Assembly (NCBI GenBank): GCA_030584065.1
Contig: CP129489.1
Span: 1,777,497-1,841,496 of the forward strand
Length of the DNA: 64,000 nucleotides
Direction: 5' to 3'
Source of the DNA: Flavobacteriales bacterium
Lineage (GTDB): Bacteria; Bacteroidota; Bacteroidia; Flavobacteriales_F; PHOS-HE28
Both the position numbers and the translations under genes were made by a program. The notes below the pieces were generated by a model that worked only from the letters and a program-made list of their open reading frames with translations, was not told the origin of the DNA and did not search any database. This document shows positions 3,784 to 43,249 of the stretch, piece after piece. Numbering within the stretch: the stretch's first letter is position 1; every line of letters begins with the position of its first letter.

Positions 3784-4974
3784 TTAGGCGGTTTGCAGGG
3801 CGGCAGCGCGCTTCAGGCGGCGCTTCACATTGGCCTGCACCACGTAGTGATCGATGAGCGGTGCCATCACATTCATGAACAGGATCGCCAGCATCATGCC
3901 CTCGGGGTAGGCCGGGTTCACCACCCGGATGAGGATGGCCATGGCGCCGATGAGGAAGCCATAGATCCACTTGCCGGTGTTGGTCTGTGCGGCGGTCACC
4001 GGGTCGGTGGCCATGAACACCAGGCCGAACATGAAGCTGCCGAGCATGAGCTGGTGCAGCACGGGAATCTGCATGTAGGCGTTGCCCAGCGAGGGGCCCA
4101 CCAGGTTGAAGAGGCTGCTCATGGCCGCACCGCCCAGGAACACGCTGAGCATGATGCGCCAGCTGCCGATGCCCGTGAGCAGCAGGATGGCCGCGCCGAT
4201 GAGGCAGGCGAAGGCGCTGGTCTCACCGATGCTGCCGGCTTCGAAGCCCCAGAAACTGTCCAGCATGGGCACCACGCCCGCCATGTTGCCCGACGCCGCA
4301 TGCCCCAGCGAGGTAGCGCCGCTGAAGCCATCCACAACGGCCTGGCCGGGCTCCAGCGCGGTGTTCACCCACACCTTATCGCCGCTCATCATGGTGGGAT
4401 AAGCGAAGAAGAGGAAGGCGCGCGCGGTGAGCGCCACGTTGAGGATGTTCATGCCCGTGCCGCCGAAGACCTCCTTGCCGATCACTACCGCAAAGGCGGC
4501 GCCCACGGCCACCATCCAGAGCGGGGTGTCCACCGGCATCACCAGGGGGATGAGCATGCCGCTCACCAGGTAGCCTTCCTGGATGGGGTGCCCCTTGATG
4601 CTGGTGAAGAGGAACTCGATGCCCAGGCCCACGCCGTAGCTCACCACCACGATGGGCAGCACCTTGATGGCGCCGAAGAGGAACTTGTCCCAGAAGCCCT
4701 CGCCCGCCTGGGTGAACTCGCCCAAGGCCAGGAAGTGCTGGTGCCCCACGTTCCACATGCCGAAGAGCAGGCACGGGAGCATGGCGGTGATCACGATGCT
4801 CATGGTCCGCTTCAGGTCGATGCCATCGCGGATGTGGGCCCCCTTCTCCGTGGCGTGGCCGGGGGTGAAGAGGAAGGTCTCCAGGCCGTCGAAGACCCAA
4901 TGCAGCTTCTCGAGCTTGCCCCCCTTGCTGAAGGCGGGCTTCATGCCATCGACCAGGTTGCGCAGTGCTTTCAC
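3784..4974 (-). CDS. nqrB: Na+-NQR subunit B
   Basis: 396-aa polytopic protein, NqrB/RnfD family (GxSLGHAASG-like region). Confidence 0.9.
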   Translation of the reverse strand: MKALRNLVDGMKPAFSKGGKLEKLHWVFDGLETFLFTPGHATEKGAHIRDGIDLKRTMSIVITAMLPCLLFGMWNVGHQHFLALGEFTQAGEGFWDKFLFGAIKVLPIVVVSYGVGLGIEFLFTSIKGHPIQEGYLVSGMLIPLVMPVDTPLWMVAVGAAFAVVIGKEVFGGTGMNILNVALTARAFLFFAYPTMMSGDKVWVNTALEPGQAVVDGFSGATSLGHAASGNMAGVVPMLDSFWGFEAGSIGETSAFACLIGAAILLLTGIGSWRIMLSVFLGGAAMSSLFNLVGPSLGNAYMQIPVLHQLMLGSFMFGLVFMATDPVTAAQTNTGKWIYGFLIGAMAILIRVVNPAYPEGMMLAILFMNVMAPLIDHYVVQANVKRRLKRAAALQTA

Positions 4975-4986
4975 GTCGGCAGCGGC

Positions 4987-6375
4987 TTAGGTGGTTTCCT
5001 TCTTCAGGGCATCGAGGCCATCGCGCACGATGCTCTGGCTGTTGATCTTGCTGGTGCACACGAACTCGCAAAGGGCGAAGTCCTCGGGCGCCACTTCGTA
5101 AAGCCCCAGCTTCTCCATTTGTTCGATGTCGTTCACCAGGATGGCCTTCAGCAGATGCACCGGGTAGATGTCGAAGGGGAACACCTTCTCGTACTGGCCG
5201 CTCATCACGAAGGCCCGCTCCTCGCCGTTCTGGTTGGTGTCGGGGGCGAACTTCTTGCCCGGCATCAGCCAGGTGGGGAAGCTGCGGTTGGCGCTGAACT
5301 TGTCGAAGCCGGGCGCCGCCCAGCCGTCGGTGATGAAGAACTTGGGCTGGTCGCCCTCGGGAAGCTGGGTCACCTGGGTGTGGTAGAAGCCCAAGAAGCC
5401 GTCGGGGCCCACGTTGTCGCCCGTGAGGCAGTTGCCGCTGATCACGCGCACCTTGCCCTCCACAGCGCCCACGATGTCCTTCATCGGCGCGCCGATAACG
5501 GTGCGCACGTACCGCGGGTTGCGCGCCTCACTGCCCGTTACGGCCACGGTGCGCGAGGCATCGTATCGGCCCTGCCGGAAGAGGCGGCCGATGAGGATCA
5601 CGTCCTGCACGCTCACCGTCCATGCCACCTCGCCCTTGTTGATGGGGCTGATGTGGTGGATCTGTACGCCCACGTTGCCGGCGGGGTGCGGGCCGCTGAA
5701 GGTGTGGCGCACCACGCCCTTGGCATCGAGGAACTCGCGCGCCGCCGTCTTATCGCTCACGCTCAGGTGCACCTTGCCCTTGGTGAGCTTGGCCAGGGCA
5801 TCGAGGCCCGTCTGGAAGTCGGCGCCGTGGTTGCGCACCACCAGGTCCTGGTCAGGCGCCAGCGGATTCGTATCGAAGCCCGAGATGAAGATGGCCTTCG
5901 GTTCGTGCGCGGGATTGGCCACCACATCGAAGGGGCGCTGCTTGATCACCGGCCATGCGCCGCTCTTCAGCAGCTTCTGCACGATGGTCTCGCGGTTCAT
6001 GCTGGCCGGGTCGCCGCTGCCGAAATCCTCGTAGCGCGTCTGTGCATCGGCCAGCACGCGCACCTCCAGCACCTTGCGCTTCTCGCCACGGATCACCTCG
6101 GCCACCTCGCCGCTCACCGGGCTGGTCCACAGCACCCGGTCATTGTACTTGTCGGCGAAGAGCGCGGAGCCGGCCTGCACGGCGTCGCCGGGCTTCACCA
6201 GTACCTTGGGCACCAAGCCATGGAAATCGGTCGGTTTGATCGCGATGACCTTCGCGGGTTCCGCCTGCACAAGGACCTTCTCGGCTTCGCCCCTCAGGCG
6301 GATGTCGAGTCCTTTGCGGATCCGGACGATGTTCGGCATGTTTGCAAACCCTCCCTTCCCGAAAGGGCGCGGCAA
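4987..6375 (-). CDS. nqrA: Na+-NQR subunit A
   Basis: 462-aa soluble NqrA-like protein, first gene of the nqrABCDEF operon. Confidence 0.9.
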   Translation of the reverse strand: MPRPFGKGGFANMPNIVRIRKGLDIRLRGEAEKVLVQAEPAKVIAIKPTDFHGLVPKVLVKPGDAVQAGSALFADKYNDRVLWTSPVSGEVAEVIRGEKRKVLEVRVLADAQTRYEDFGSGDPASMNRETIVQKLLKSGAWPVIKQRPFDVVANPAHEPKAIFISGFDTNPLAPDQDLVVRNHGADFQTGLDALAKLTKGKVHLSVSDKTAAREFLDAKGVVRHTFSGPHPAGNVGVQIHHISPINKGEVAWTVSVQDVILIGRLFRQGRYDASRTVAVTGSEARNPRYVRTVIGAPMKDIVGAVEGKVRVISGNCLTGDNVGPDGFLGFYHTQVTQLPEGDQPKFFITDGWAAPGFDKFSANRSFPTWLMPGKKFAPDTNQNGEERAFVMSGQYEKVFPFDIYPVHLLKAILVNDIEQMEKLGLYEVAPEDFALCEFVCTSKINSQSIVRDGLDALKKETT

Positions 6376-17711: not shown

Positions 17712-17772
17712 GGTTATGCTGCTTTGCGTCGCCTTCAAACTCGAAGGGCGGCCCGGTGGGCCGCCCTTGCTG

Positions 17773-17856
17773 TACCGGAGAAGGGACTCGAACCCTTACA
17801 ACCTTACGGTCACACGCCCCTGAAACGTGCGCGTCTACCAATTCCGCCACTCCGGT
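17773..17856 (-). tRNA. tRNA-Leu (anticodon CAG), type II with long variable arm
   Basis: Hand-folded. Acceptor stem ACCGGAG/CTCCGGT; D-arm GCG..GGTAGA..CGC; anticodon stem CACGT/GCGTG with loop TTCAGGG; 15-nt variable arm; T-arm AAGGG TTCGAGT CCCTT; discriminator A. CCA is not encoded. Confidence 0.85.
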
Positions 17857-20483: not shown

Positions 20484-21332
20484 CTATCGTTTCGGCTTCA
20501 ACCGCTTCGTACCCTGCTTCACCTGCTTGGCCTCGCTCTTCAAGCGTCGTTCGACCTTCTTCACATCCTCTCCCGGCGGGAGCTGCTCCGGCTTGATGCC
20601 ACGCTGGAGCATACTGCTCCGAACAGCCTTGTTGCTGGCCACATGCTCGTCACCGATCGACTTCGTACCGCGCAGGTCCTTCTCCAATACGTTGTGGCTC
20701 GTCATCTCCGTGGCGAAATCCTTCGCCTTGATCGCCAGGGTGGAAAGGAAGTCGGCCAGCGGACGTGCGTCGGGTGCGCCCAGCTTGCGTTTCATGTCGT
20801 TGGTGCTCGCGCCGCCGAAGAGCGCTTGGTCACCCTTGCAGCGGATCACCGCGAAGCCCGCGTGGTCCACGCCACGTTCGTAGATGATGCCGCTCAACTT
20901 CTTCTCACTCTTCATCAACTTCTCCCGGGCTGTCACGCGGGCCACGTCGAGCAGGCGCTGCTCGATCACCTCCTGCTTGCGCGTCTGCACGGCGAAGTAG
21001 GTCTGTGCGAAGGCAATGGCGGGCTTGGCCGGATCACCGTTCTGAGCGATGAGGTAGCAGGCGTACCGCGTGAGGGCGATGTCCTCGATCATGCGCTCGC
21101 TTCCGGAGCCAAGGGTGACCATTTTGCCGATCCCGGCAAAATGGTCGGAGACCGCTTCCCCAGCGGCTGCACAGGCCTCTTTCGCCTTGTCGATGACCGT
21201 GGAGAAATTGCTCCACTTGGTATAGCCGAGCACGACCTGCAGCTCCCGCGCGCTCCAGCACTCCACACCGTTCACCTCACCGCTCGCCGCCTCGAAACGT
21301 GCGAACAACTCCTGGATCTGGTCCTTCTTCAT
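20484..21332 (-). CDS. dinD: DNA damage-inducible protein D (Bro-N domain)
   Basis: MKKDQIQELFARF...ECWSARELQVVLGYTKWSNF..., a strong match to the DinD N-terminus; 282 aa. Confidence 0.8.
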   Translation of the reverse strand: MKKDQIQELFARFEAASGEVNGVECWSARELQVVLGYTKWSNFSTVIDKAKEACAAAGEAVSDHFAGIGKMVTLGSGSERMIEDIALTRYACYLIAQNGDPAKPAIAFAQTYFAVQTRKQEVIEQRLLDVARVTAREKLMKSEKKLSGIIYERGVDHAGFAVIRCKGDQALFGGASTNDMKRKLGAPDARPLADFLSTLAIKAKDFATEMTSHNVLEKDLRGTKSIGDEHVASNKAVRSSMLQRGIKPEQLPPGEDVKKVERRLKSEAKQVKQGTKRLKPKR

Positions 21333-21620: not shown

Positions 21621-22306
21621 CTACGGCAGGCAGGCGCGGAGCGAAGGGGCGCATACGAGCCGTAGCTCGGTATCGAAGGTGATCAGCCCGCGGTCAAAGG
21701 CCTTGTCGTGGAGGGCGTTGAGAGCGATGCCGTTCTGTGGATCAAGACGGTGCTGCTCGGCCACGTTCCACGGCACGATCCCGCGAAGCGGGACAAGTAG
21801 TGCGAGGCCACGAGCAGATCGCGGATGCCGAGTCCGGTCACCGCGCACCGACCGTTGTAAGCGTTGAGCACGGCTTGGCGGAAGTAGCGCTGGCCCCGGC
21901 GCACCTTCACCGAGGCGGTGCTTTCGGTGGGGCCTTCGGGCATACGGAGCACTTTGCCATCCGGTTGTACCACGACCGGCGCATCGGGATCGCCGGTCAT
22001 CAGCTGGGCCAAGAGCGCCTCGCTCTCAGGGGCCAAGGCCTCGTGCTGGGCGTGGAACTCCGCCCACACCTGACGGTCCAGCGCACTGGCGCCGGACAAG
22101 CCCCTGATGCCCCGCGCGGCCAATCGCTCGTCCAAGGAGGCCAGGTTGCTGAGCTTCATGGCCACGCTGCCCGGCGTGCGCTCCATCCGCTGGGCCACAT
22201 CGATCAGCACGGGGTTGCCCTGGTCGAACTTCCCAAAGGGGATCTTCTCGTACAGGTTCAGGAGGATCAGCAGCTCCTCGCGCGACCATGGTTTGCGGGT
22301 GGTGCT
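21621..22306 (-). pseudogene. HNH endonuclease (HNH_2/pfam13391-like) remnant: no start codon and a frameshift inside the HNH motif
   Basis: Conserved N-terminus ...PWSREELLILLNLYEKIPFGKFDQGNPVLIDVAQRMERTPGSVAMKLSNLASLDE... is preceded by an in-frame TGA with no ATG, GTG or TTG between. CAVTG...LLVASH is in one frame and IVPWNVAEQHRLDPQNGIALNALHDKAFDRGLITFD in the next. Confidence 0.65.
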
Positions 22307-22399
22307 TGACGATGCCGTTCCAAGTTTTCAACAAGACTTGGACCCGCCGCAATGTGTTCCTATAATGCTGTCGAAGTACTGTTGAAAAATCCGTCAATC

Positions 22400-22789
22400 A
22401 TGAGCGTCACCTCGAACCCCATTCCACACAGCGAGCAGGAGGCCCTGGGCATGCTGCTCCCGACACTTGGTCAACCCGTGCAGCAGCTTTCGCATGACGC
22501 GTTCAAGCAGGCATGGTCAGCTGTGTTCTATCTGTATGGCGGGTTGCATCCTGATGATGCCACCGACCACGGCACCCAGCTCATCACGGGCTTTGATGGT
22601 CCCGAGGAGTACAGGTCCATCGATCCGCGACTTGTCGTGCCCCGCTATCAGCAAAGTGGCTGGCCGGTGGTGCTTGCACCCTTGGCTGCCGAAGCATGGA
22701 CTAGGTATGAACTGGGCCTGCTTAGCGAGGATGAACTCTATTGCGCTGAGGTGCAACATGCCGGGTTCATGGAGCGGATGAAGGGCTGA
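22400..22789 (+). CDS. hypothetical protein
   Basis: 129-aa ORF downstream of an AT-rich stretch containing TATAAT; unknown function. Confidence 0.35.
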   Translation: MSVTSNPIPHSEQEALGMLLPTLGQPVQQLSHDAFKQAWSAVFYLYGGLHPDDATDHGTQLITGFDGPEEYRSIDPRLVVPRYQQSGWPVVLAPLAAEAWTRYELGLLSEDELYCAEVQHAGFMERMKG

Positions 22790-22880: not shown

Positions 22881-24179
22881 ATGAAGAAGACCGCAAAGCC
22901 GCTCAAGCGCAAGGCGCCGTTGAGGAGGCAAGCCGCATCGAAGAGCAAGGAGTCGAAAGAGAGCAAGGCCCCCATGGCCATCAAGCGCTACTCAGGGAAG
23001 AAGGATGAGCGCGTTGCGGTGGTTGGAGAGCCAATGGTGCCCTACGGTCAAGGGTCATTCCGCTTCATCGACCTGTTCTGTGGCATCGGTGGCTTCCACA
23101 TCGCTTTCTCCAAGCAGGGTGGCGAATGTGTGTTCGCATCAGACTGGGACAAGTACGCCCAGATCTCCTACGCCGCGAATCACGGCCTTACTCCCATCGG
23201 TGACATCACCAAGGTGCCTGTGAAGGACATCCCTAAGCATGAGGTCCTTTGCGCGGGCTTCCCTTGCCAGCCCTTCAGCATTGCAGGTGTGTCTAAAAAG
23301 AACAGCCTCGGGCGCAAGCACGGCTTTGAGGATGAGCGGCAAGGCAACCTATTCTTCAACATCGCGGAGATCCTGGACCACCACCGTCCGGCGGCCTTCG
23401 TGTTGGAGAACGTGAAGAACCTGAAGAGCCATGATCGCGGGAATACCTACAAGGTGATCATGGACATCCTGCGGAACAAGCTCGGTTATCATGTCGTGGA
23501 GCCCCGCATCATCGATGCCAAGCCTTACGTGCCGCAACACCGGGAGCGCATCTTCATCGTTGGCTTCTGCGATGCCGCTGCGGCAGAGCGGTTCAAGTGG
23601 CCTACGCCTCCAAGCGAAGGCCCCAAGCTGCATACGATACTTCAACCCCGTGTGCCTGAGAAGTACACGTTGACCGACCATCTGTGGGCCTACCTCCAGA
23701 ACTACGCCGCCAAGCACAAGGCTGCGGGCAATGGCTTCGGCTTCGGTCTTGTGGGGCCGGATGACACAGCGCGCACATTGAGCGCACGCTACCACAAGGA
23801 TGGTTCGGAGATCCTGATCAACCAAGGCCGGGGGCGTAATCCGCGTCGACTCACTCCTGATGAATGTGCCTTGCTCATGGGCTATGAGGACTTCGAGATC
23901 GTGGTGAGCGATACGCAAGCCTATCGCCAGTTCGGCAACTCGGTCGTGGTCCCTGTTGTTACGGCGATCGCTGAGCAGGTGACCAAGGCCTTGGGCCTAA
24001 CCAGTGAGCAACACAAGCTGATGGCTTCCCATGCGGCCGAGCCAAGCACCACTTACACCAAGGCCAAGGCTTCCAAAGTCGGAGCGAAGGCTGTAGTTGA
24101 ACAAGATCTTAACGATCTTTCGGGGGCGATCAAGCCAGGCGCAAAGCAGAAGCGCAAGGCTGATCTTGCCCTTGCATGA
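22881..24179 (+). CDS. dcm: DNA (cytosine-5)-methyltransferase (Dcm family)
   Basis: Motif [10 protein letters not shown], motif [10 protein letters not shown], motif [10 protein letters not shown], motif [14 protein letters not shown]. Lys-rich N-terminal extension. 4-nt overlap with the next gene. Confidence 0.9.
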
Positions 24180-25372
24180 GCCAGTCCCTTGCAGACGTCT
24201 TTGATGCCGTAGCGCACAAGCGCCTTGTGCAGGTCGACCTTCCCGGAATGGGGTCGAACCAGCATGAATTGAATGGTGTATCAGCGCTTCGCGAGTTCTT
24301 CCAGACCAGCGAAAAGGTCGAAGGACCATTGCATTGGCACTACTTCGCCGATGATAAGGAGGTTGAAGAGCAGGAAGGGCGTTTCAGTTTCTATGATGCG
24401 AGGGCCAAGTCCGCCGAAAGGACGGGGCGCTCTGAGTGGCGTTTCTATTACTCCGGTGAGTTCCTTGCGAAGTGTGCACCAGGCGATGAGTTGATCATTG
24501 TTCGCGCGGCAGGCAAGGTGCATGCACTTGTATTTCAGCGAGGCTCAGCTCGTTTACGCGCGGCGCTTCTCCTGTTCGGCATTAGTTCCACAGGGGAGCA
24601 GATCAGTCTTCTGTCAAGTGAAGCAATAGCCAAGAGCGACCTCGCGCTTTTTCGGCGACAAGTCATCGAAGAGCTTGAGCTCGACGTCCAGTTGCCTGTT
24701 GCCGGTAACGACAAGGACTTGGTCATTGAGCGCTTCGGTGAGAAGTTCCCTTCAACCGCTGTCATGTCAGCCTTCGCGCGTGAGCAGGTCGGTTCGGATG
24801 TTGGGGACGCCGATGCTGCCTTGGTCGCGTGGCTTGATCGTGAAGAACAGCTCTTCCGCGCTCTGGAGGAGGTGATCATTAGCAAGCGCATCCAGCAAGG
24901 CTTCAAGGAGGTGGATGACTTCATCCAGTACTCGCTTACGGTTCAGAACCGCCGCAAGTCGCGCATGGGGCATGCCTTGCAGCATCACTTGGCCGAAGTG
25001 TTTACGCTCCACAAGGTTCAGTTCAAGGCTCAGGCGAAAACCGAGGGTGGCAACAAGCCCGATTTCATCTTTCCTGGCGAGGCTGAGTATCACAACGCAT
25101 CCTTCGACGAGTCGCTGCTTCTCATGCTTGGTGTGAAGTCCAGCGCGAAGGACCGTTGGCGTCAGATCCTTCCGGAAGCTTCGCGAATCGCCACCAAGCA
25201 CCTATGCACGCTGCAGCCTGGGATCTCAGAGAACCAGACCGATCAGATGGCCAGCGAACGTGTGCAATTGGTGATACCTAGTTCGATACAAGCCACTTAC
25301 ACGGATGCCCAGCGCTCCAAACTTCTGAGCGTTGCCGGCTTTATTGACTTGGTGCGTAGCAAGCAAGCGTGA
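24176..25372 (+). CDS. putative type II restriction endonuclease (EcoRII-like by size and context; PD-(D/E)XK-like ...KPDFIF...LGVKSS...)
   Basis: 398 aa, translationally coupled between dcm and vsr. A CCWGG-type M/R/Vsr trio is inferred from gene context only. Confidence 0.45.
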
Positions 25373-25735
25373 TGGCCAAGCGACACGACGTCTTCACCAA
25401 GGCCAAGCGCTCGGAGGTGATGTCGAAGATCCGGGGCAAGGGCAACAAAGCCACAGAGGTCGCCCTAGCCAAGCTATTTCGGGCCAGCGGCATCACCGGC
25501 TGGCGCAGACACTATCCCATTACAGGGAAACCAGACTTTGCCTTCCCCAAGCTGAAGTTCGCCGTCTTCGTGGATGGCTGCTTCTGGCATGGCTGCCCCA
25601 AGCATGGCACCCGGCCCAAGGGTGTAAGCTTCCCCGAAGTTCGGCCATTCATTGCTGGAGGTGAAGTGATCCTTGGCCCCGCGGGGCCAAGGATCGCTTC
25701 GGCCGGCCAGGGGCTACATTCAACCACACGTAGCC

Positions 25736-26008
25736 ATGAGAAAGAGCAAGTTCACCGAGCATCAGGTCATCGCCATCCTCAAGCGTCACGAGGCTGGCTC
25801 GAAGGTGGCCGACCTGTGCCGCGAGCACGGGATCAGCAACGCCACGTTCTACCAATGGAAGGCCAAGTATGGCGGCATGGAGCCCAACCAGGTCAAGCAG
25901 CTGCGTGACCTGCAGGAGGAGCTCAGCCGCCTGAAGCGCATGTACACCGAGCTGAGCATGGTGCATGATGCCTTGAAGCAGGTGGTGGAAAAGAAGTGGG
26001 GCGCCTGA
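25736..26008 (+). CDS. IS3-family transposase OrfA (HTH)
   Basis: [48 protein letters not shown]... Confidence 0.8.
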
Positions 26009-26033
26009 CGAGAAGCGCGAGATCGTTCAGGCG

Positions 26034-26807
26034 ATGATACAGGAGCACAGCATCTCCGAGCGCCAAGCCTGCGGCAGCGTGGGCTTGGCGCGCAGCACCG
26101 CGCAGTACTGCAAGACCCCAGCGGATGACACGCCCATTATCCAGGTCTTGGAACAGCTCACCCAGAAGCACCCGGCCATCGGGGTGTGGCAAAGCCATCA
26201 TCGGATGCGCTTGATGGGTCACCTGTGGAACTTCAAGCGGGTGTATCGGGTCTACACCGGTCTGGGCCTCAACATTCGTCGCAGGGCCAAGAAACGGCTG
26301 CCTGCACGGGTGAAGCAGGCGCTGTTCCGTCCTGCTGGTCCGGACCAGGTCTACAGCATCGACTTCATGCATGACAGCCTCTGGGACGGCCGGACCTACC
26401 GCTTGCTAAATGTGATCGACGACTACAACAGGGAGGTGCTCGCGATCGAGGTGGACACCTCACTGCCCGCACTGCGCGTGATACGCGTGCTGGAACGCAT
26501 CAAAGCAGTGCGTCCGCTGCCCAAGATGATCCGCGTGGACAACGGCCCGGAGTTCATCAGCGCCAAGCTCGACCACTGGTGCCGCGAACACGGCATTACC
26601 TTGACCTACATCCAGCCAGGCAAGCCCACCCAGAACGCCTACATCGAACGCCTCAACGGCAGCATCCGTCGTGAACTGCTCAGCGCCTACGTGTTCCGTA
26701 CCTTGGACGAGGTGCGCGAGAAGGCCGATGAGTGGATGACCGATTACAACCATCACCGCCCACACAAGGCGCTTGGCTACCGGCCGCCAGCGCCCATCCG
26801 ATCCTAA
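26034..26807 (+). CDS. IS3-family transposase OrfB (DDE integrase core)
   Basis: Has the DNGPEF motif and the rve fold. It lies in the +1 frame relative to orfA, not the usual -1 (see findings). Confidence 0.8.
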
Positions 26808-27040
26808 ACCTATGCCCCAGGAGCCTCTAGTTATGATCGGCCCGAAAACAGGGGAAGCTTACAAGGGCAACAGCGCGTTTTGGTCCGCGAAGCTGGACGC
26901 CAACAAGGCCCGGGACCGCAAGGTGAATCGTGAGCTTCTAGCCATGGGATGGCGCGTGCTAAGGATTTGGGAATGTAAGCTCCCCCAAGATCAGGTGCGT
27001 GGGATAGTAGAAACCCACAACCCACCTGAACTTTGGAGCA

Positions 27041-27307
27041 ATGAAGAAGAGTAAATGGACGGAAGCGCAGATCGTAGGGATGCTGCGCGAGCATGAGCAG
27101 GGCCGCAAAGTGGCGGACATCTGCCGGGAGCACAGAGTAAGCCAGCCGACGTTCTACCAGTGGAAGGCCAAGTATGGTGGCATGGGCGCAAGCGAGCTCA
27201 AGGAGCTACGGGCATTGCGCGAGGAGAATACCAAGCTGAAGCTCAAGCTGGCCGACACGATCCTGGACCGTGACATCCTCAAGGAGATCCTGGGAAAAAA
27301 GCCCTAG
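27041..27307 (+). CDS. IS3-family transposase OrfA
   Basis: [48 protein letters not shown]...; ends ...ILGKKP*. Confidence 0.8.
   Translation: MKKSKWTEAQIVGMLREHEQGRKVADICREHRVSQPTFYQWKAKYGGMGASELKELRALREENTKLKLKLADTILDRDILKEILGKKP
27295..27301 (+). promoter_or_regulatory. programmed -1 ribosomal frameshift heptamer A AAA AAG of IS copy 2
   Basis: 'gga aaa aag ccc tag' in the orfA frame. The -1 frame continues KKALGLAEKREMAHWLV... into orfB. Confidence 0.7.
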
Positions 27308-27327
27308 GGCTCGCCGAGAAGCGTGAG

Positions 27328-28227
27328 ATGGCACACTGGCTTGTAACGCAGTGCAAGCGCAGTGTTCGGCGGGTCTGCAAGCTGCTATGCTTGAGCCAGA
27401 GCGTGTATCGCTACGAGCCCAAGCCGAAGGACGATATCGACGTGATCGAACACATGAACCACTGGGTGACCAAGAAACCGACCTGGGGCTTTTGGAAGGT
27501 GTACACTCGTGTACGCAAGGACGGCCGTGTGGTGAACCACAAGCGCCTACACCGGCTGTACACCACAGCAGGGCTCAACCTGCGTCGACCTACGAAGAAG
27601 CGCGTTCCGGACCGGGTGAAAGAGCCACTGTGTTTGCCGATCGGCCCGAACATCACTTGGAGCATGGACTTCATGGCCGACCGGCTGCTGAACGGCAACA
27701 AGCTGCGCACGTTCAACGTCATTGACGACTTCGGCCGCGAGGCACTGAACATCACGATCGACACCTCTATCCGCGCCCAGTACGTGACGCGTGAACTGGA
27801 CAAGTTGATCGAGTGGCGTGGCAAGCCAGAGCGGCTGCGAGTGGACAATGGCCCTGAGTTCATCGCCCAGGAGATGGAATTGTGGGCGGAACGCAACGGC
27901 ATCGCACTTACGTTCATCGAGAAGGGGCGTCCCATGCAGAACGGCCTGATCGAGCGATTCAATCGCACCTACCGGGAAGAAGTGCTGGACGCCTACCTGT
28001 TCGAGAACCTCGAACAGCTTCGCCAGCTGACCATCGAGTTCATCTGGAGCTACAACAACGAGCGGCCCCATGATGCACTCCTGGACCTGACCCCGCGCGA
28101 GTTCCTGTTGAAATGTGGACAACTCCCTGCCCACTACGCAGGCTCACGCGCGGACTTCCCCACATTCCAACAGGATGATCACCACAGATCAACAGAAGTG
28201 GTGATCTTTAGGAATTCGCGCGCCTGA
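27328..28227 (+). CDS. IS3-family transposase OrfB (DDE)
   Basis: DNGPEFIAQ...; -1 frame relative to orfA. The OrfAB fusion is reachable by slippage at the A_AAA_AAG site. Confidence 0.8.
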   Translation: MAHWLVTQCKRSVRRVCKLLCLSQSVYRYEPKPKDDIDVIEHMNHWVTKKPTWGFWKVYTRVRKDGRVVNHKRLHRLYTTAGLNLRRPTKKRVPDRVKEPLCLPIGPNITWSMDFMADRLLNGNKLRTFNVIDDFGREALNITIDTSIRAQYVTRELDKLIEWRGKPERLRVDNGPEFIAQEMELWAERNGIALTFIEKGRPMQNGLIERFNRTYREEVLDAYLFENLEQLRQLTIEFIWSYNNERPHDALLDLTPREFLLKCGQLPAHYAGSRADFPTFQQDDHHRSTEVVIFRNSRA

Positions 28228-28311
28228 TCAGGGGGAGCTTACAGGAACATGACCTAACCGATAGGCGTGTTTCCCATACCATTAACCGCATTGAAGAATA
28301 CATCCAGATGT

Positions 28312-29175
28312 CTACCGCGAAGTAGGGTTTCGGAACAATACCATTTCCTTGAACTGAGCTGAGTCTAGTTGGTTATCGACTTCTCTCTCATTGTTCGCTG
28401 CAGTTGGTCCTCTCCAAACAGGAGATAGTCGCCAATTAATGACCCCGTTCCTTATACTATTCAGCACTGTTTCGGTCCATTCTGGGGAATAGGCGCAACC
28501 TGGCGGTGTGCTAGGTAAACTCATTGCATGAACAATCACAAATTCTAATCCTTTGTTAAACCTCTTTATGCATTGTTTCCACCACTTAGTTTTCACTGAA
28601 TGCTGAAGATGTGTATCATTCTCCATATAACCGAAAAGCTCCTCCTCGAAAATCTGGCAGAGTTTATCCATATTCTTAATTTCAGCATCCCTTAAGTAAC
28701 CCTCAGATTGAAATGGTGCATCAGCAGGAAGAGAATTGATGAACGCCTCTACGAACACATTCCAAGATTGGTCCGTAAGTCCGTGGTTTCTCCAATTTTC
28801 ACGATAGTGTCCAAGCTCGTCAAGCTGTGAGGTTACTCTTCCAATTATACGGAGCTTGGCTTCCGACCGACTAATACCCTCCCATGCAAGAGACTCACTA
28901 GCCTCGGCGCCAAAGCGGCGCTGCGCGTTTGTGAGTTCATCTTCGCTAATTGCAGAGTACTTTAATGCCTTATGTGTATACTGGTACTTATTCTGTGTGA
29001 ATTCATCATGTGCATTTGCAACAACTTCTAGAAAATCCTCATGATTTGGCCCTTTAAACACAGTAACTGGAACTGGTTGATTGGGCCGAGCGATGAGGTA
29101 AGCGCACAATCGATGATTGCCATCAAATACTTTTAACTGACCATCCGAGTATCGGCATAGAATAGGCGAAAGCAA
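28312..29175 (-). CDS. ParB/Srx-superfamily (DGQHR/DUF262-like) domain protein; no ATG start, in frame with the upstream HNH ORF
   Basis: ...SDGQLKVFDGNHRLCAYLIARPNQ... (D-G-x-H-R motif). Track start is a TTG. The 45 codons upstream, up to the HNH stop, contain no stop. Lower GC than the flanks. Confidence 0.55.
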   Translation of the reverse strand: MLSPILCRYSDGQLKVFDGNHRLCAYLIARPNQPVPVTVFKGPNHEDFLEVVANAHDEFTQNKYQYTHKALKYSAISEDELTNAQRRFGAEASESLAWEGISRSEAKLRIIGRVTSQLDELGHYRENWRNHGLTDQSWNVFVEAFINSLPADAPFQSEGYLRDAEIKNMDKLCQIFEEELFGYMENDTHLQHSVKTKWWKQCIKRFNKGLEFVIVHAMSLPSTPPGCAYSPEWTETVLNSIRNGVINWRLSPVWRGPTAANNEREVDNQLDSAQFKEMVLFRNPTSR

Positions 29176-30044: not shown

Positions 30045-30260
30045 TCATTCCATGTACTCCTTGAAGTCATCCAAGGGTGCATCGAAGTCGTCCGGCACCG
30101 TCACCATGCCCTTGGCCAAGCCGGGCACCGGCGTCTTGCGCTTCTCCTGCGGCTCATTGCCCTGCCGGCGACGCATCAGGAACTCGATGAAGTCGAGCAC
30201 CTGCTGGCGAACATCCTCCGGGAGGGAGGATAGCTGGATGTAGTTGTGCGCCTTGGCCAT
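30045..30260 (-). CDS. DUF2281-family antitoxin (orphan)
   Basis: MAKAHNYIQLSSLPEDVRQQVLDFIEFLMRRRQ...; no toxin gene downstream. Confidence 0.6.
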   Translation of the reverse strand: MAKAHNYIQLSSLPEDVRQQVLDFIEFLMRRRQGNEPQEKRKTPVPGLAKGMVTVPDDFDAPLDDFKEYME

Positions 30261-30420: not shown

Positions 30421-30861
30421 TCATTTCAAGAACTCGTCCGTGAAGTTCCGCGCGCTCAGTATCCGTGTGTGTCCATAGCTCCGCATCGAGAGCAGGTCGT
30501 CATCGCCGGTGATCAGCAGATCAGCCTTCCCCTTCTTCGCCATCAGCAGCAGATAGTCATCCTTGGGGTCGCGGGAGAGGGGAGCCTGGCCGGTGGACCG
30601 CACCTCCACGGATTCCCCAGCTTCCGCCAGGGCGAGGATCAGTTGATGGGCGAACTCTACAGGGAAATGCTTGCGGAACCTCGCTCGTGCGGCCACATCC
30701 AGCAGCTCGGCCAGTAGTTGGGGGCTCACCAGCAGAACGAAGTCGCTGTGGCGCAAGGCAGCCACGAAGCCTCCCAGCCGCTTGCCGATCAGGAAGCTGA
30801 TGAGCACGTTGACGTCAACGACGACGCGCAGCGCGGCTCGCTTCCTTTTTGGCGGCGGCAT
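30421..30861 (-). CDS. PIN-domain toxin (putative toxin-antitoxin system toxin component, PIN family)
   Basis: VVDVNVLISFLIG...DDYLLLMAKKGKADLLITGDDDLL (the PIN acidic residues). Confidence 0.75.
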   Translation of the reverse strand: MPPPKRKRAALRVVVDVNVLISFLIGKRLGGFVAALRHSDFVLLVSPQLLAELLDVAARARFRKHFPVEFAHQLILALAEAGESVEVRSTGQAPLSRDPKDDYLLLMAKKGKADLLITGDDDLLSMRSYGHTRILSARNFTDEFLK

Positions 30862-33405: not shown

Positions 33406-36400
33406 ATGATCGACCGGATCATCAAGTTCTCCATCCACAACAAGGCCATCATCGGGCTGTTCACGCTCGTGCTGGTGCTTTACGGGGCGTACTCGCTCAC
33501 GCAATTGCCGATCGATGCGGTACCCGACATCACCAACAACCAGGTGCAGGTGATCACCACCACGCCTACGCTGGCCGCGCAGGAGGTGGAACAGTTCGTT
33601 ACCGCGCCCATCGAGCGGGCCATGGCCAGCCTGCCCGATCTGGTGGAGATCCGCTCCATCAGCCGCTTCGGGCTAAGTCTTGTGACCATCGTATTCGATG
33701 AGGACGTGGACGTGTACTTCGCCCGCACCTTGGTGGACCAGCGCCTGGGCGAGGCCGCCGCACTGATACCGCCCGGGGTGGGCACACCGACCATGGCCCC
33801 GGTAAGCACCGGGTTGGGCGAGGTGTACCAATACGTGCTGCACCCCAAGGAAGGGTACGAGGGCACCTTCAGCCCCAGCGAGCTGCGCACCATCCAGGAA
33901 TGGATCGTAGTGCGGCAGCTGTTGGGCACACCCGGTGTGGCCGAGGTGAACAGCTACGGCGGCGAGGTGAAGCAGTACGAGGTGAGCGTGGACCCCAAGC
34001 GCTTGCAAAGCATGGGCGTCACCATCGGTGAGCTACTGCTCGCGTTGGAGAGCAACAACGAGAACACCGGCGGCGCCTACATCGAGAAACGGCCCAACAG
34101 CTACAGCATCCGGGGCGAAGGACTGCTGCGCACGCTGGACGACATCCGCAAGGTGGTGGTGAAGATCCCGCCCGGCGGTGTGCCGCTCCTGGTGGGCGAT
34201 GTGGCCGAGGTGGGCTTCGGTGCGGCCCCGCGCTACGGTGCGCTCACCCGCAATGGCGAAGGCGAAGCGGTGGGCGGCACGGTGATGATGCTGAAGGGTG
34301 GCAACAGCGCCGAAGTGGTGAAGGCTATTGAAGCGCGCATACCGAACGTGCAGAAGGCCCTGCCGGAAGGGCTGATGATCGAACCCTATCTGGTGCGCAG
34401 CGAACTGGTGGGGCGGGCCATCGGCACGGTGAAGACGAACCTGATCGAGGGCGCGTTGATCGTGATCTTCGTGCTGGTGCTCTTTCTAGGAAATTGGCGC
34501 GCGGGCCTCATCGTGGCCTCGGTGATCCCACTGTGCATGCTCTTCGCCATCATCCTCATGAACGCCTTCGGCGTCAGCGGCAATTTGATGTCGCTTGGTG
34601 CCATCGATTTCGGATTGATCGTGGACGGCGCCGTGATCATCGTGGAGGCCACCCTGCACCACCTGCATGCGCGCTTCAAGGGAAGGATCCTTACCCGCGA
34701 GGAGATGGACCGCGAGGTTTTCGTGAGCGCCAGCAAGATCCGGACGAGCGCGGCCTTCGGCGAGATCATCATCCTGATCGTGTACATCCCCATCCTCACA
34801 CTGGTGGGCATCGAGGGCAAGATGTTCCGCCCCATGGCCATCACCGTCAGCTTCGCCATCCTGGGTGCCCTGTTGCTCTCGCTCACCTATGTGCCCATGA
34901 TGAGCGCGCTGGTGCTGCCGCGCAACACGGCGCACAAACCCAACTTCAGCGACCGCATGATGGACCGTTTCCAGAAGTGGTACGATCCCATCATCGGCTT
35001 CGCCTTGCGCAACCGGATCAAGACCGTGGGTGTGGCCGTGGCGCTCTTCATCAGCTCGGTCTTCCTGTTCGCACGCATGGGCGGCGAGTTCATTCCCACC
35101 TTGGAAGAGGGCGACTTCGCCTTCCACAGCATCCTGCCGCAGGGCGCATCGCTCAGCCAGAGCATCGCCAACAACGCCAAGGTGGAGAAGATCCTGCTGC
35201 AATTCCCGGAGGTGAAGCAGGTGGTGGGACGCACCGGCAGCGCCGAGATCCCCACGGACCCCATGCCCCCCGAAGCCACGGACCTCATGATCATCTTGAA
35301 GGACAAGGACGAATGGACCACCGCGCACGACCGCGAGGCTTTGCAGGACACCATGCTGCAAGCCTTGAGGCAGGTACCCGGCGTGTTCTACGAAGCCACC
35401 CAACCCATCCAGATGCGCTTCAACGAATTGATGACCGGCATACGGCAGGACGTGGCCGTGAAGATCTACGGTGAGAACATGGACACCCTCGCGGTGATCG
35501 CGAACAAGGTGGCGGCGATCATCGGCGAAGTGCAAGGTGCGGGTGAACCGCAGGTGGAAAAGGTGGTGGGCCTGCCACAGATCACCATCACCTACGATCG
35601 TGCACGGGTAGCGCAGTACGGCCTCAACATCCGCGAACTGAACCGCACCGTGCGCACGGCCTTCGCGGGCGAGGCCACCGGCGTCATCTACGAGAACGAG
35701 CGCCGCTTCGATCTGGTGGTGCGCCTCGGTGACCAACAGCGGCAGAGCATCGACGATGTGCGCACCCTCTTCGTGGCGCTGCCCGGTGGCGGACAGATCC
35801 AGTTGCAGCAGGTGGCCGATGTGTCCTTGACACCCGGCCCGGCCCAGATCAGCCGGGAGGATGCCAAGCGCCGCATCGCCGTGGGCGTGAACATCCGTGG
35901 CCGTGACGTGGAAAGCTTCGTGGAAGAGCTCCAAGGCCGCATCGATGCCGAAGTGCCAATGCCCGCGGCCTACTACTACACCTTCGGCGGCACCTTCGAG
36001 AACCTGCAGGCAGCTAGCAAACGCCTGATGCTGGCGGTGCCCATCGCGCTGGCCCTCATCTTCCTGCTGCTCTTCTTCACCTTCAACAGCGTGAAGCGCG
36101 CCCTGCTGATCTACACCGCCATCCCCATGAGCGCCATCGGCGGTGTGCTTGCGCTCATGGCGCGCGGCATGCCCTTCAGCATCAGCGCGGGCGTGGGCTT
36201 CATCGCGCTCTTCGGCGTGGCGGTGCTCAACGGCATCGTCCTCATCGCCACCTTCGACCAACTGGAAAAGGAAGGCATCAGCGACCTGAAGGAGCGCGTG
36301 TTGAAAGGTACCCGCACACGGCTGCGTCCCGTGCTGATGACGGCGGCGGTGGCCTCGCTCGGTTTCCTGCCCATGGCCTTGAGCGGCAACGCGGGCGCGG

Positions 36401-37728
36401 AAGTGCAACGCCCCCTGGCCACGGTGGTGATCGGTGGCCTCATCACCGCCACGGCCCTCACCCTCATGGTGCTGCCGGTGCTTTACCTGCTCTTCATGGG
36501 CGGAGGCAGGAGGCGCAACGATGCCAATGGCGGCAAGGCGAACGCACCGCTGATCGTCGCGACCGTGCTGTTGATCATGATCGGCGGCACCAGCAGCGCA
36601 CAGGAACCGATGCCGATGGACACGGCGATCGCACGCGCCTTGCGCACCCATCCGAGCATGACCGCTGCGGAACTGCGTGTGCAGGAACAGGATGCCCTGC
36701 GTGGCACGGCCTTCGGGCTGCAGCCGCTCAACGCGCAATTCTCCCATGGCCAGACCCAGGGGCCGTATCCCAAGGACATTATCCTGGAAGCCAATACCGG
36801 GTTCGCATTTCCCACCACCATTGCCCGACGCGCGGCCTACCTGAAGGAAAGCCTGCACCTTGCGGAGAACGAAAAGCTGAACACGGCGGCCTACGTGAAG
36901 GAGAGCGCGGGAGGGGCCTACCTGCAATGGGCCATGGGCCTTGAACAGGTGCGTATCCTGCAACAGCTGGACAGCGCGTACGCATCCATGGCGGCCTTCG
37001 CGCTGCAGCGCTTCGAGCTCGGTGAGACCGGCCGCTTGGAAAGCACCAGTGCGCAAAGCCGCGCCGAGCAGGTGAAGGTGCGCTTGCGCCAGGCACAGGC
37101 TGATCTGGTGGCCTACCAGGTGGAAGTAGAACGCTGGACGGGCCCGCTCAGTGGTGCCGTGCCGGTGCCCGAGGAATTGCTCAACACCGCACGAGCGCCG
37201 GATCCCGGCGGCGGCAACGACCCGCTCCTGCTCTCCTTGCAGCAGCGCACGCAGGTGGCCGAGGCCGAATGGAAACTGCAACGCAGCCAATGGGCACCCA
37301 GCCTGCAGGGCGGCGGCTTCTACCAGACCTTCGATGGCACGTCGCCCTTTTCGGGCTTCCTCATCGGTGCTTCGATCCCCCTGCCCGGCAGCGGCCAGGG
37401 CGGTCGCACCTCGGCGGCACGTTTGCGCAGCGAGATCGCCGCGCAGGAACTGGAAGCCGCACGCCGACAGCGCAGCAGCGAGCGCGCCACCACGCAGGCG
37501 CAGCTCACTCAATTGCGCGAGAGCCTCGCCTTCTATGAAAGCACCGGTGCCGCGCTGGGTGCTACCCTGCGCGACGATGCCCTGCGTGCCTATCGCGCGG
37601 GCGAAGCCGACTACTTCCAATTCACTCAAGGCATCGAGCAGGCCTTTCAACTCAACGCCGAGCACCTGCGCGTGCGTTACGAGCTCGCACTTACCGTCCT
37701 CCACCTCCGTGCCCTCAATGGGCTCTAA
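33406..37728 (+). CDS. czcA: CzcA/CusA-family heavy-metal RND pump fused in frame to a TolC/CzcC-type outer-membrane factor (1440 aa, no stop between them)
   Basis: Residues 1-~1030 are a typical HME-RND (12 TM helices, two large loops). Then ...VLPVLYLLFMGGGRRRNDANGGKANAPLIVATVLLIMIGGTSSAQEP... (a signal-peptide-like segment) and ~400 aa of OMF repeats. Confidence 0.8.
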   Translation: MIDRIIKFSIHNKAIIGLFTLVLVLYGAYSLTQLPIDAVPDITNNQVQVITTTPTLAAQEVEQFVTAPIERAMASLPDLVEIRSISRFGLSLVTIVFDEDVDVYFARTLVDQRLGEAAALIPPGVGTPTMAPVSTGLGEVYQYVLHPKEGYEGTFSPSELRTIQEWIVVRQLLGTPGVAEVNSYGGEVKQYEVSVDPKRLQSMGVTIGELLLALESNNENTGGAYIEKRPNSYSIRGEGLLRTLDDIRKVVVKIPPGGVPLLVGDVAEVGFGAAPRYGALTRNGEGEAVGGTVMMLKGGNSAEVVKAIEARIPNVQKALPEGLMIEPYLVRSELVGRAIGTVKTNLIEGALIVIFVLVLFLGNWRAGLIVASVIPLCMLFAIILMNAFGVSGNLMSLGAIDFGLIVDGAVIIVEATLHHLHARFKGRILTREEMDREVFVSASKIRTSAAFGEIIILIVYIPILTLVGIEGKMFRPMAITVSFAILGALLLSLTYVPMMSALVLPRNTAHKPNFSDRMMDRFQKWYDPIIGFALRNRIKTVGVAVALFISSVFLFARMGGEFIPTLEEGDFAFHSILPQGASLSQSIANNAKVEKILLQFPEVKQVVGRTGSAEIPTDPMPPEATDLMIILKDKDEWTTAHDREALQDTMLQALRQVPGVFYEATQPIQMRFNELMTGIRQDVAVKIYGENMDTLAVIANKVAAIIGEVQGAGEPQVEKVVGLPQITITYDRARVAQYGLNIRELNRTVRTAFAGEATGVIYENERRFDLVVRLGDQQRQSIDDVRTLFVALPGGGQIQLQQVADVSLTPGPAQISREDAKRRIAVGVNIRGRDVESFVEELQGRIDAEVPMPAAYYYTFGGTFENLQAASKRLMLAVPIALALIFLLLFFTFNSVKRALLIYTAIPMSAIGGVLALMARGMPFSISAGVGFIALFGVAVLNGIVLIATFDQLEKEGISDLKERVLKGTRTRLRPVLMTAAVASLGFLPMALSGNAGAEVQRPLATVVIGGLITATALTLMVLPVLYLLFMGGGRRRNDANGGKANAPLIVATVLLIMIGGTSSAQEPMPMDTAIARALRTHPSMTAAELRVQEQDALRGTAFGLQPLNAQFSHGQTQGPYPKDIILEANTGFAFPTTIARRAAYLKESLHLAENEKLNTAAYVKESAGGAYLQWAMGLEQVRILQQLDSAYASMAAFALQRFELGETGRLESTSAQSRAEQVKVRLRQAQADLVAYQVEVERWTGPLSGAVPVPEELLNTARAPDPGGGNDPLLLSLQQRTQVAEAEWKLQRSQWAPSLQGGGFYQTFDGTSPFSGFLIGASIPLPGSGQGGRTSAARLRSEIAAQELEAARRQRSSERATTQAQLTQLRESLAFYESTGAALGATLRDDALRAYRAGEADYFQFTQGIEQAFQLNAEHLRVRYELALTVLHLRALNGL

Positions 37729-42328: not shown

Positions 42329-43249
42329 TCACACTACGATGTACCGCTCTTGCAAATACGTTAGCCACTTATCGAAATCGGGTGATGGCGAATGCTCCTG
42401 GCAGATATCAAGAAATCGTTCATAAGTAAGCGTCATGAACCTGCCGTCCGGTGCGGCTAGGAAGGACTTGTAGCCTGTGCAAGCGTCGTCCATGTGCTTA
42501 TTGCCTTTCGGGAACAAGGTGAGCGAGGTAGCGTGGGCAAATCGCTCAGGATGCTTGAGCAGAATGCTCTCCGCGAGTAGGTGGTTCCGCCAGATCTGCC
42601 GGTAATCGTCTGTGATCACCTGTGTTTCGCATCCCGGCTTGAATATCCCACAGGCAGCCATGACCTTGAAGTAAATAGAGGCTCGGTCATTCACAGTTCG
42701 CTCTTCCGTGGAGCCATGCTTCAATTTGTAGGCGCGTTCGGTGTACTTCACCTCAATCCCGATAAGCCCCCGCCGACCTTCCTTATCAGTGCTTTCGGTA
42801 TATGCATCGAAAGATGTACCATCATTCAAATACTCTGAACGTGGCGACGGCGCAAACTCGATGCGAATCGGATCGACAGTGCTCAAGGGTTCTCCAAGCA
42901 AGTCTGAGAAAACCTGCAGGCGATACTTATCGTCCAAGTTCAGGGGCCAGAGCATGTTCAACGGAATGTGCTCGCTCCGAAGCATGTTCCCATAGACCTT
43001 CTCGCTCGTTATCGGATAACGCTTCCTAGCGGCTTCCAAGATGCCTAACTCGGGATAGAAGTTGCATCCTGCATCCGCGTCGCATGGCGTTAGGAAGTTG
43101 CCGTAGTTCTTCGTCTTACTCCATCCGTGTGGCAATTTCAACCGCTCTGCACGGAATCTTGATTGATGAAGGCGCGCCTTCTTCAGGAATTCGGACTTAT
43201 CGAGTCCGTCATCCCCGCTGTATTGTGGTCCGATACCGTAACTCATCAC
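42329..43249 (-). CDS. hypothetical PD-(D/E)XK-like nuclease-fold protein (cargo of the cassette nearest icmF)
   Basis: ...[29 protein letters not shown]... (D...E-x-K). AT-richer than the flanks. Its start overlaps the icmF stop. Confidence 0.4.

Follow-up and report, generated by a model that had tools for sequence, protein, structure and literature searches.

A Type II restriction–modification operon of the EcoRII/Dcm kind, whose associated vsr gene has recently been destroyed, is very likely what lies in the 64 000-nucleotide stretch of Flavobacteriales DNA analyzed here (the window). Because two different IS3-family elements split vsr, the Vsr protein cannot be made, and only the methyltransferase (M) and the restriction endonuclease (R) are left intact. 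The protein sequences of M and R are identical to those in two other assemblies, including a sister metagenome contig (L001) in which vsr is uninterrupted. The M–R pair is an ordinary operon of a known kind, a Dcm-type methyltransferase with an EcoRII-family enzyme, and the annotation that fits the sequence is that of an EcoRII-family Type II system, probably CCWGG-specific, with a vsr pseudogene. The features of the locus are as follows.

22400..22789, + strand: U129, upstream ORF; the longest ORF begins at 22352, and Met 22400 is the start in homologues
22881..24179, + strand: M, C5-cytosine DNA methyltransferase of the Dcm/M.EcoRII type, 432 aa (PF00145, TIGR00675)
24176..25372, + strand: R, EcoRII-family restriction endonuclease, 398 aa (C-terminal match to PF09019)
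25372..25622, + strand: vsr fragment 1, codons 1–84 with codon 84 partial (PF03852, E 7e-21, ORF residues 7–75; tblastn with the rebuilt Vsr)
25623..26863, + strand: IS-A, IS3-family, 1241 bp (inverted repeats, target duplication, HTH_Tnp_1 and rve)
26864..26973, + strand: vsr fragment 2, middle of the gene (TIGR00632 positions 76–118 match the ORF at 26773–27054; tblastn; reconstruction)
26974..28243, + strand: IS-B, second IS3-family element, 1270 bp (inverted repeats, target duplication, Pfam, NF033516)
28244..28325, + strand: vsr fragment 3, the 3′-terminal part with the TAG stop (begins with the 4 duplicated nt, GGAA)

The ORFs for M, R, and the start of vsr all run in the same direction. 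M ends and R begins within an ATGA at 24176–24179, and R ends and vsr begins within a TGATG at 25370–25374; a first-pass annotation had described both overlaps, and both are read in the sequence. The R start overlaps the M stop, and R is probably translated in dependence on M, an arrangement that would help methylation to precede restriction. The same annotation was right to call the third ORF vsr, as the frame from 25372 does open a vsr gene, but its intact trio does not hold: the frame is Vsr-like for only ~ 84 codons, beyond which it enters an IS3-family element. The end coordinate given, 25375, takes in just the vsr start codon, and the two-element split of the gene was missed. An operon that seems translationally coupled may thus conceal an IS-split gene if the first codons alone are checked.

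The two elements divide vsr into three, the breaks falling at codon 84 and codon ~ 119. The hallmarks of the IS3 family are present, namely OrfA (HTH) and OrfB (DDE/rve: rve, rve_3), TG...CA inverted repeats, and a short target duplication. IS-A is bounded by the terminal inverted repeats TGTAAGCTTCCCC...GGGGAAGCTTACA and by a 4-bp target duplication, AGGG, at 25619–25622 and 26864–26867, the latter being the first 4 nt of vsr fragment 2; it encodes HTH_Tnp_1 and rve domains and scores 218 bits against NF033516 (cut-off 160). IS-B has the inverted repeats TGTAAGCTCCCCC...GGGGGAGCTTACA, a 4-bp duplication, GGAA, at 26970–26973 and 28244–28247, an AAAAAAG slippery site at 27295, and a score of 210 bits against the same model (cut-off 160). 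When the elements were excised by joining 25372–25622, 26868–26973, and 28248–28325, the frame was exactly restored and a 144-aa Vsr was obtained, identical to the intact Vsr of L001, a contig of 99.8% identity. The rebuilt protein scores 116.5 bits against TIGR00632 (cut-off 97.85) over model positions 3–119 of 119, while the separate fragments, at 57.6 and 47.2 bits, each fall under that cut-off.

Insertion sequences are repeats, and IS sequence is where two related metagenome contigs, L001 and L002, break off, so IS copies from elsewhere could conceivably have been collapsed into the locus during assembly. Such an artefact is extremely improbable here, as the 4-bp target duplications are perfect at both insertions and excision restores the frame exactly. 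IS-A and IS-B also differ, resembling each other over only ~ 120 bp (77%), and the window contains a single copy of each. Moreover, the left junction between vsr and IS-A recurs at 100% identity in L002, an independent assembly from a different data set. No second copy of vsr or of a C5-methyltransferase gene able to compensate was found within the window. The genuine loss of vsr by double insertion is therefore the preferred reading.

The first-pass annotation held that the endonuclease family could not be confirmed from sequence; standard HMMs, however, were enough to resolve the family assignment fully. M matches PF00145 (E 2.8e-80, 270.6 bits, residues 60–368) and TIGR00675 (287.8 bits, exceeding the 100.65 cut-off), and scores 384.9 bits, under the 710 cut-off, against the Dcm model NF007772; in alignment, the N-terminal region of Dcm and several of its loops have no counterpart in M. 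Its identity to Escherichia coli Dcm is 51%, target-recognition region included, and this region aligns closely with those of both Dcm and M.EcoRII, bearing out the Dcm-type assignment made previously. The Lys-rich N-terminal extension pointed out at that time is also real, spanning ~ 58 residues (aa 1–58), with the Pfam methylase domain beginning at residue 60. The C terminus carries a basic tail of ~ 60 residues (aa ~ 370–432). The start MKK(T/S)xKPL, and the sequence just upstream of it, are kept in the relatives L003 and L004, and a dN/dS of 0.12–0.14 indicates purifying selection on M. A pair of CCWGG sites within the 91 bp 5′ of M was considered as a possible methylation-sensitive operator, but this idea was dropped because the sites are not kept in L003–L006.

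R contains an EcoRII-C catalytic domain (PF09019; 3HQG fold) at residues 227–390 (24854–25345), and its similarity to EcoRII-C (E 1e-40) far exceeds that to Ecl18kI (E 0.16) or PspGI (E 0.55). The suggestion that the middle ORF is an endonuclease thus stands, as do the 398-aa size and the KPDFIF...LGVKSS motif on which it was based. Residues D296, K321, and E334 align with EcoRII Asp299, Lys324, and Glu337, and are invariant in 50 homologues and 12 genome loci. Likewise kept are K325-D326-R327, N258, and R260, the counterparts of EcoRII Lys328-Asp329-Arg330, Asn260, and Arg262; the roles of the catalytic and CC:GG-reading residues in EcoRII were described by Golovenko et al. (2009; PMC2770665). 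All of these residues, together with E223 and F227, are invariant or nearly so in the 50 homologues.

One position departs from EcoRII. [quoted passage not shown] (PMC2770665), aligns with Gln269 of R. This replacement of the first catalytic glutamate, together with the two IS insertions inside a single operon and the frameshift in an adjoining gene for an HNH nuclease, could be taken to mean that the restriction half is decaying or inactive and that M now acts as an orphan Dcm-like methyltransferase in an eroding defence island. That is very unlikely. Glutamine is the norm of the clade (46 of 50 sequences in alignment A1, the other four having Glu) and not a private mutation, while Glu is found in other members of the R family, including the distant members L005, L026, and L028 and the Sphingomonas loci; L017 has Met. 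The R ORF spans the full length of its 50 homologues, among which D296, K321, and E334 are invariant, dN/dS is 0.05–0.07 in both R domains, indicative of purifying selection, and the identity of M and R to the proteins of two other assemblies likewise argues against decay. An intact R is thus favored, and as a lesser possibility the Gln269 enzymes may form a subfamily of EcoRII-like enzymes with an altered metal-binding site.

The most likely target of the system, judged from the protein sequences, is CCWGG, which was also the motif first put forward and which remains the best candidate given the Dcm/M.EcoRII-like target-recognition region of M and the retention of E223 and F227 in R. In the pocket for the flipped base, E223, F227, and R263 are kept (EcoRII Glu225, Phe229, and Arg265), while Arg222, Tyr226, and Ala266 of EcoRII are replaced by L220, E224, and M264, with a shift in helix register possible. 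In EcoRII, Arg222 and Tyr226 sandwich the flipped base. Handling of the central base by R may differ because these two residues are Leu220 and Glu224. An active system with a related target, such as CCNGG or another CC-x-GG variant, comes into question because the pocket is unlike that of EcoRII. It would find a precedent in Ecl18kI (CCNGG) and PspGI (CCWGG), which have a common fold and read CC:GG in the same way. CCNGG methyltransferases, for example M.SsoII, are also Dcm-like. A variant target is nevertheless rather unlikely, as EcoRII Glu225 and Phe229, tied to A/T discrimination by Golovenko et al. (PMC2770665), are retained as the invariant E223 and F227, the target-recognition region of M is close to those of Dcm and M.EcoRII, and R is much closer to EcoRII-C than to Ecl18kI or PspGI. 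CCWGG therefore remains the preferred target.

A depletion or deamination signature at CCWGG was also sought in the window. CCWGG was mildly under-represented, with an observed/expected ratio of 0.85, and CTWGG/CCWAG stood at ~ 1.1; the CCWGG count is uninformative, however, because the unrelated GGWCC gives the same ratio of 0.85. The window and L001 differ at 24 positions, all left of position 20841, and none of the 24 converts CCWGG to CTWGG/CCWAG, a comparison without power to detect C-to-T change after loss of Vsr.

The N-terminal part of R (aa ~ 1–170; 24176–~ 24685) adopts a B3-like pseudobarrel fold of the DNA-binding type seen in EcoRII, and on the basis of fold similarity it is most likely an effector DNA-binding and autoinhibitory domain. 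Kinship to EcoRII-N at the sequence level was looked for and rejected. Pfam gave no EcoRII-N (PF09217) match to this domain even at E <= 10, as against 9e-63 for EcoRII itself, and hhalign comparison of the R N-domain profile with both the EcoRII sequence and an EcoRII-N profile derived from 16 homologues returned probabilities of <1%, leaving fold comparisons as the sole link. Because MAFFT and hhalign put the C-arm in different registers, no residue-by-residue claims are made for this domain.

By homology, a working scheme can be proposed. M would methylate C5 of the inner cytosine in CCWGG and so protect host DNA. R would act as a two-domain EcoRII-like enzyme whose C-terminal PD-(D/E)XK domain dimerizes, with K325-D326-R327 reading the two CC:GG halves and the central W pair flipped out, and unmethylated sites would be cut. 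Cleavage would need at least two sites, in Type IIE fashion, through the effector role of the N-domain; in the EcoRII family, unmethylated CCWGG is cut ahead of its first C, and an extra effector site is required. An intact Vsr would nick the T:G mismatches that arise by deamination of 5-methylcytosine at target sites; its loss is expected to leave an unrepaired C-to-T hotspot at methylated sites.

M was found on the strand of R and directly 5′ of it in ~ 27 of the 34 genome loci surveyed, which came from Bacteroidota, Verrucomicrobiota, Acidobacteriota, Chloroflexota, and Sphingomonas; about half had vsr. In metagenomes, members of the R subfamily number in the thousands. Comparison with EcoRII (IncN plasmids; PDB 1NA6, 3HQF, and 3HQG) shows a likewise ~ 400-aa two-domain R with ~ 40% identity in EcoRII-C, in which both the catalytic D-K-E set and the CC:GG-reading KDR triad recur, an N-terminal domain of the same B3-like pseudobarrel fold, and a Dcm-type M whose target-recognition region is similar. 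The EcoRII-like organization claimed in the first-pass annotation is another matter: in EcoRII, the R and M genes are convergent and no vsr is present, whereas here they are co-directional, M then R, translationally coupled, and with vsr attached. Further differences are that the N-domain is missed by the Pfam EcoRII-N model, that Glu271, Arg222, and Tyr226 become Gln, Leu, and Glu, and that a Lys-rich tail is found in M where M.EcoRII has an N-terminal region of ~ 95 aa. PspGI and Ecl18kI, of merely marginal sequence similarity to R, are single-domain enzymes without an N-terminal effector domain.

The arrangement is nearer to that of E. coli dcm-vsr with R inserted, and to a phage module, than to EcoRII. 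E. coli K-12 pairs a Dcm-type methyltransferase with a co-transcribed, overlapping vsr-type repair gene, and in both cases the rationale is repair of the damage that deamination of 5-methylcytosine causes, but E. coli has no restriction gene and its dcm and vsr overlap directly, whereas here R stands in between and vsr is broken. The closest published module is that of Burkholderia phage KL3, comprising gp47 (M), gp46 (Vsr), and gp45 (EcoRII-C endonuclease) (Lynch et al. 2010; PMC3091744). The same three functions are held in one co-directional module, and gp45 is a full-length homologue of R, 39% identical over R residues 5–398, of the same subfamily and with EcoRII-C as its only Pfam domain. 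The KL3 order, however, is M-Vsr-R rather than M-R-Vsr, the KL3 module is prophage-borne whereas the present one is chromosomal in a Flavobacteriales-like genome, and here vsr is disrupted.

Two neighbors lie upstream of M. The HNH nuclease gene next to the operon (21621–22210) is split over two frames. U129 (22400–22789) encodes a helical protein of an unannotated domain family that adjoins or is fused to C5-methyltransferases, the fusions including ones at the C terminus of complete enzymes. The family is without a model in Pfam, NCBIfam, or PADLOC, and its fold has no match in the PDB. U129 is possibly an accessory of the restriction–modification system, and we tentatively suggest that it belongs to an undescribed helical domain family of ~ 125 aa that serves as a dedicated partner of C5-cytosine methyltransferases. 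On that tentative footing, it may be U129, and not the M–R–vsr trio, that is the most novel element at the locus.

The M–R–vsr locus leaves the current understanding of restriction–modification unchanged. Pfam covers only half of the R subfamily, and no model exists for its B3-like N-domain. If the suggestion above is true, the U129 family might supply m5C restriction–modification systems with a new module for regulation or damage control. Finally, a Dcm-type methylase that has been kept while Vsr has just been lost provides a natural test of the weight of very-short-patch repair in mutation at methylated sites, with a sister sequence as the vsr-intact counterpart.

Three co-directional ORFs were found by ORF listing and direct reading, at 22881-24179 (432 aa; the Dcm-type C5-cytosine DNA methyltransferase, M), 24176-25372 (398 aa; the endonuclease, R) and from 25369/25372 (vsr). 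The sequence ATGA at 24176-24179 is common to the M stop and the R start, and TGATG at 25370-25374 is common to the R stop and the vsr start, as described in the first-pass annotation, and the KPDFIF and LGVKSS motifs are present in the 398-aa product. The family of this product had been left unassigned, and HMM comparison readily placed it in the EcoRII family: residues 227-390 of R covered the whole of the Pfam EcoRII-C domain (E 1.3e-66). A phmmer search of R against PDB sequences retrieved EcoRII (1NA6, E 4e-41; 3HQG, E 1.3e-40), with only marginal matches to Ecl18kI and PspGI. An AlphaFold2 model of R built from 50 homologues (pLDDT 89.9, pTM 0.87) was aligned by Foldseek to full-length EcoRII (E 3e-25, 415 columns).

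The functional residues of R were assessed with Golovenko et al. 2009 (PMC2770665) as the reference. R D296, K321 and E334, equivalent to EcoRII D299, K324 and E337, were kept, together with the CC:GG triad K325-D326-R327, N258, R260 and the pocket residues E223, F227 and R263, and all of these were invariant or nearly so across the R family. The position of EcoRII Glu271 is occupied by Gln269 in R (Gln in 46 and Glu in 4 of the 50 aligned sequences), and EcoRII Arg222 and Tyr226, which sandwich the flipped base (PMC2770665), align with R Leu220 and Glu224. The main uncertainties concern what Gln269 signifies and the exact central-base specificity of the system.

Within the family, conservation of the N-terminal 170 residues of R equals that of the catalytic domain, and a dN/dS of 0.04-0.05 shows that purifying selection on this domain is equally strong. 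Pfam EcoRII-N gave no match to these residues even at E <= 10, and profile comparison of the domain with the EcoRII sequence or the EcoRII-N profile also gave none. Strands and helices follow one another in the model in an order compatible with the EcoRII-N layout of PMC2770665, and MAFFT placed the family-invariant R residues K15, Q29, Y73, R76, E87 and R89 opposite EcoRII K23, Q37, Y85, R88, E96 and R98. These equivalences are tentative, because the non-significant hhalign alignment of the domain puts the C-arm in a different register. We conclude that R is an EcoRII-like enzyme built of two domains, of which the N-terminal one is B3-like and strongly diverged; this architecture suggests a Type IIE effector and autoinhibition mechanism.

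M matched PF00145 (E 2.8e-80) and exceeded the cut-off of TIGR00675; against the Dcm model NF007772 it reached 385 bits, under the 710-bit cut-off. BLASTP with E. coli K-12 Dcm gave 51% identity across M residues 59-354. In a three-way alignment with Dcm and M.EcoRII, the interval between motifs VIII and IX (the target-recognition region) was well conserved, while M lacked their N-terminal region and several loops. The Lys-rich N-terminal stretch noted earlier is indeed present, with ~58 residues ahead of the Pfam domain. This start is probably real; the closest relatives share both the MKK(T/S)xKPL start and GAACGAGGC ahead of the ATG. Relatives of M differ at their N-termini, with short basic tails in verrucomicrobial and other homologues, and basic C-terminal tails are also common. 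In four Sphingomonas loci of the same family (L029-L032, order M-V-R; M genes at ~4270-5538), the M N-terminus by eye resembles a helix-turn-helix segment (LSFSELRQRTGMSVEELA...STVYRWERGE) where the clade studied here has the Lys-rich tail. M.SsoII has a regulatory N-terminal domain, which the Sphingomonas segment recalls.

More than 3,600 relatives of R were detectable, and the best 120 of these were all ~400 aa, aligned over their full length and carried only the EcoRII-C annotation. In species-representative genomes, R was immediately preceded by a co-directional Dcm-like M in ~27 of 34 loci, and in four more M lay on the opposite strand or downstream; vsr was nearby in about half, in the orders M-R-V, M-V-R and V-M-R. 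The closest genomes are Flavobacteriales MAGs (89% identity), and the Type IX secretion sorting domains encoded in the vicinity are consistent with a source in Bacteroidota. The earlier description 'EcoRII-like organisation' is inaccurate, because in EcoRII proper, on an IncN plasmid, R and M are convergent and there is no vsr. E. coli dcm-vsr is a two-gene analogue, and Burkholderia phage KL3 carries a three-gene module, described in 2010 (PMC3091744), that comprises methylase, Vsr and 'EcoRII-C endonuclease' genes; the KL3 endonuclease, gp45, is homologous to R along its full length (39% identity, residues 5-398). The locus is an ordinary R-M system of an already known kind.

The ORF immediately upstream of M, U129 (22400-22789), had no Pfam, NCBIfam or PADLOC match and no PDB fold match. 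It accompanies the M-R pair in Bacteroidota relatives and one Verrucomicrobiales genome. A profile search returned 325 cluster representatives, and in nine of the ten longer proteins checked C5-methyltransferase sequence lay N-terminal to the U129 domain (three with a complete domain; six partial, some probably fragments). These sequences point to a solid genomic association between the U129 family and C5-methyltransferases.

The reading of the trio was correct yet incomplete; it needs correcting on the endonuclease family (EcoRII), on the organisation (not that of EcoRII) and on vsr, which is a pseudogene here. The frame from 25372 resembles Vsr over only ~84 codons and is followed by:

25623-26863, IS-A, IS3-family element; inverted repeats TGTAAGCTTCCCC.../...GGGGAAGCTTACA; 4-bp duplication AGGG
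~110 bp directly after IS-A, middle piece of vsr
26974-28243, IS-B, second and different IS3-family element; duplication GGAA
last 78 bp, ending at 28325, 3' piece of vsr

Both transposases pass the NCBI IS3 family model. When the two elements were excised along with a single copy of each duplication, the result was a Vsr of 144 aa (116.5 bits; cut-off 97.85), identical to the uninterrupted Vsr on the JGI metagenome contig L001. That contig is 99.79% identical to the window across 11.4 kb, with zero nucleotide differences within M, R and the vsr pieces, so the insertions are recent. The Logan assembly L002, from a different run, shows 100% identity and contains the vsr/IS-A junction, which counts against an assembly artefact. 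On L001, an IS-A copy lies in opposite orientation ~75 bp beyond the vsr end (L001 11707-11833; equivalent of window 28400), inside the neighbouring gene, so this small region has been hit repeatedly.

The neighbourhood resembles a small lower-GC patch of defence genes and mobile elements, containing the Bro-N, HNH, post-vsr and DUF2281-PIN genes among the following features:

17772-17856 (-), tRNA-Leu(CAG)
20484-21332 (-), Bro-N domain protein; PADLOC defence-candidate model PDC-S13, full length, E 3e-114
21621-22210 (-), HNH nuclease gene, oriented divergently to the operon; matches positions 56-185 of 286 in PADLOC HNH model PDLC04132
28312-29175 (-) and 29311-29772 (-), two unannotated genes right after vsr, in a 47% GC patch
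30045-30260 (-) and 30421-30861 (-), DUF2281 protein and PIN_3 protein
33406-37728 (+), 1440-aa ORF; complete AcrB/RND transporter domain (aa 5-1030) and outer-membrane efflux protein (OEP) domain (aa 1271-1437)
42329-43249 (-), PDDEXK_13 / REase-ARP nuclease gene

The HNH gene appears frameshifted: an HNH_2-like C-terminal motif, NGIALNALHDKAFDRGLITF, lies in 21621-21848 in another frame than the N-terminal 175-aa ORF (21683-22210), and the same 175-aa call was made on L001. Neither post-vsr gene had a Pfam or PADLOC match; a DGNHR motif occurs in one of them, and its partner is Cys/His-rich (CYVCDG...FDHW...NCHKGK). The gene at 28312-29175 is the one interrupted by IS-A on L001. The DUF2281 and PIN_3 genes look like a toxin-antitoxin pair. 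After the RND-OEP fusion, which looked unusual, come genes for a membrane-fusion protein and a P-type ATPase. The PDDEXK_13 gene overlaps its neighbour, an IcmF-like gene (43246-46803, -) in which B12-binding, MeaB and methylmalonyl-CoA mutase parts are fused, at the end of the latter. GC falls from ~0.68 to 0.56-0.63 (about 19000-55000) just past the tRNA gene, so the R-M locus may sit in an island integrated beside tRNA-Leu(CAG).

By analogy with the families, M would methylate the inner C of CCWGG, and R dimers would cut unmethylated sites via base flipping as in EcoRII-C, Ecl18kI and PspGI, with cleavage probably requiring that the N-domains bind additional sites. R is probably translated in a manner coupled to M translation. 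Without Vsr, general repair would have to deal with the T:G mismatches produced by 5mC deamination, and methylated sites should therefore become C-to-T hotspots.
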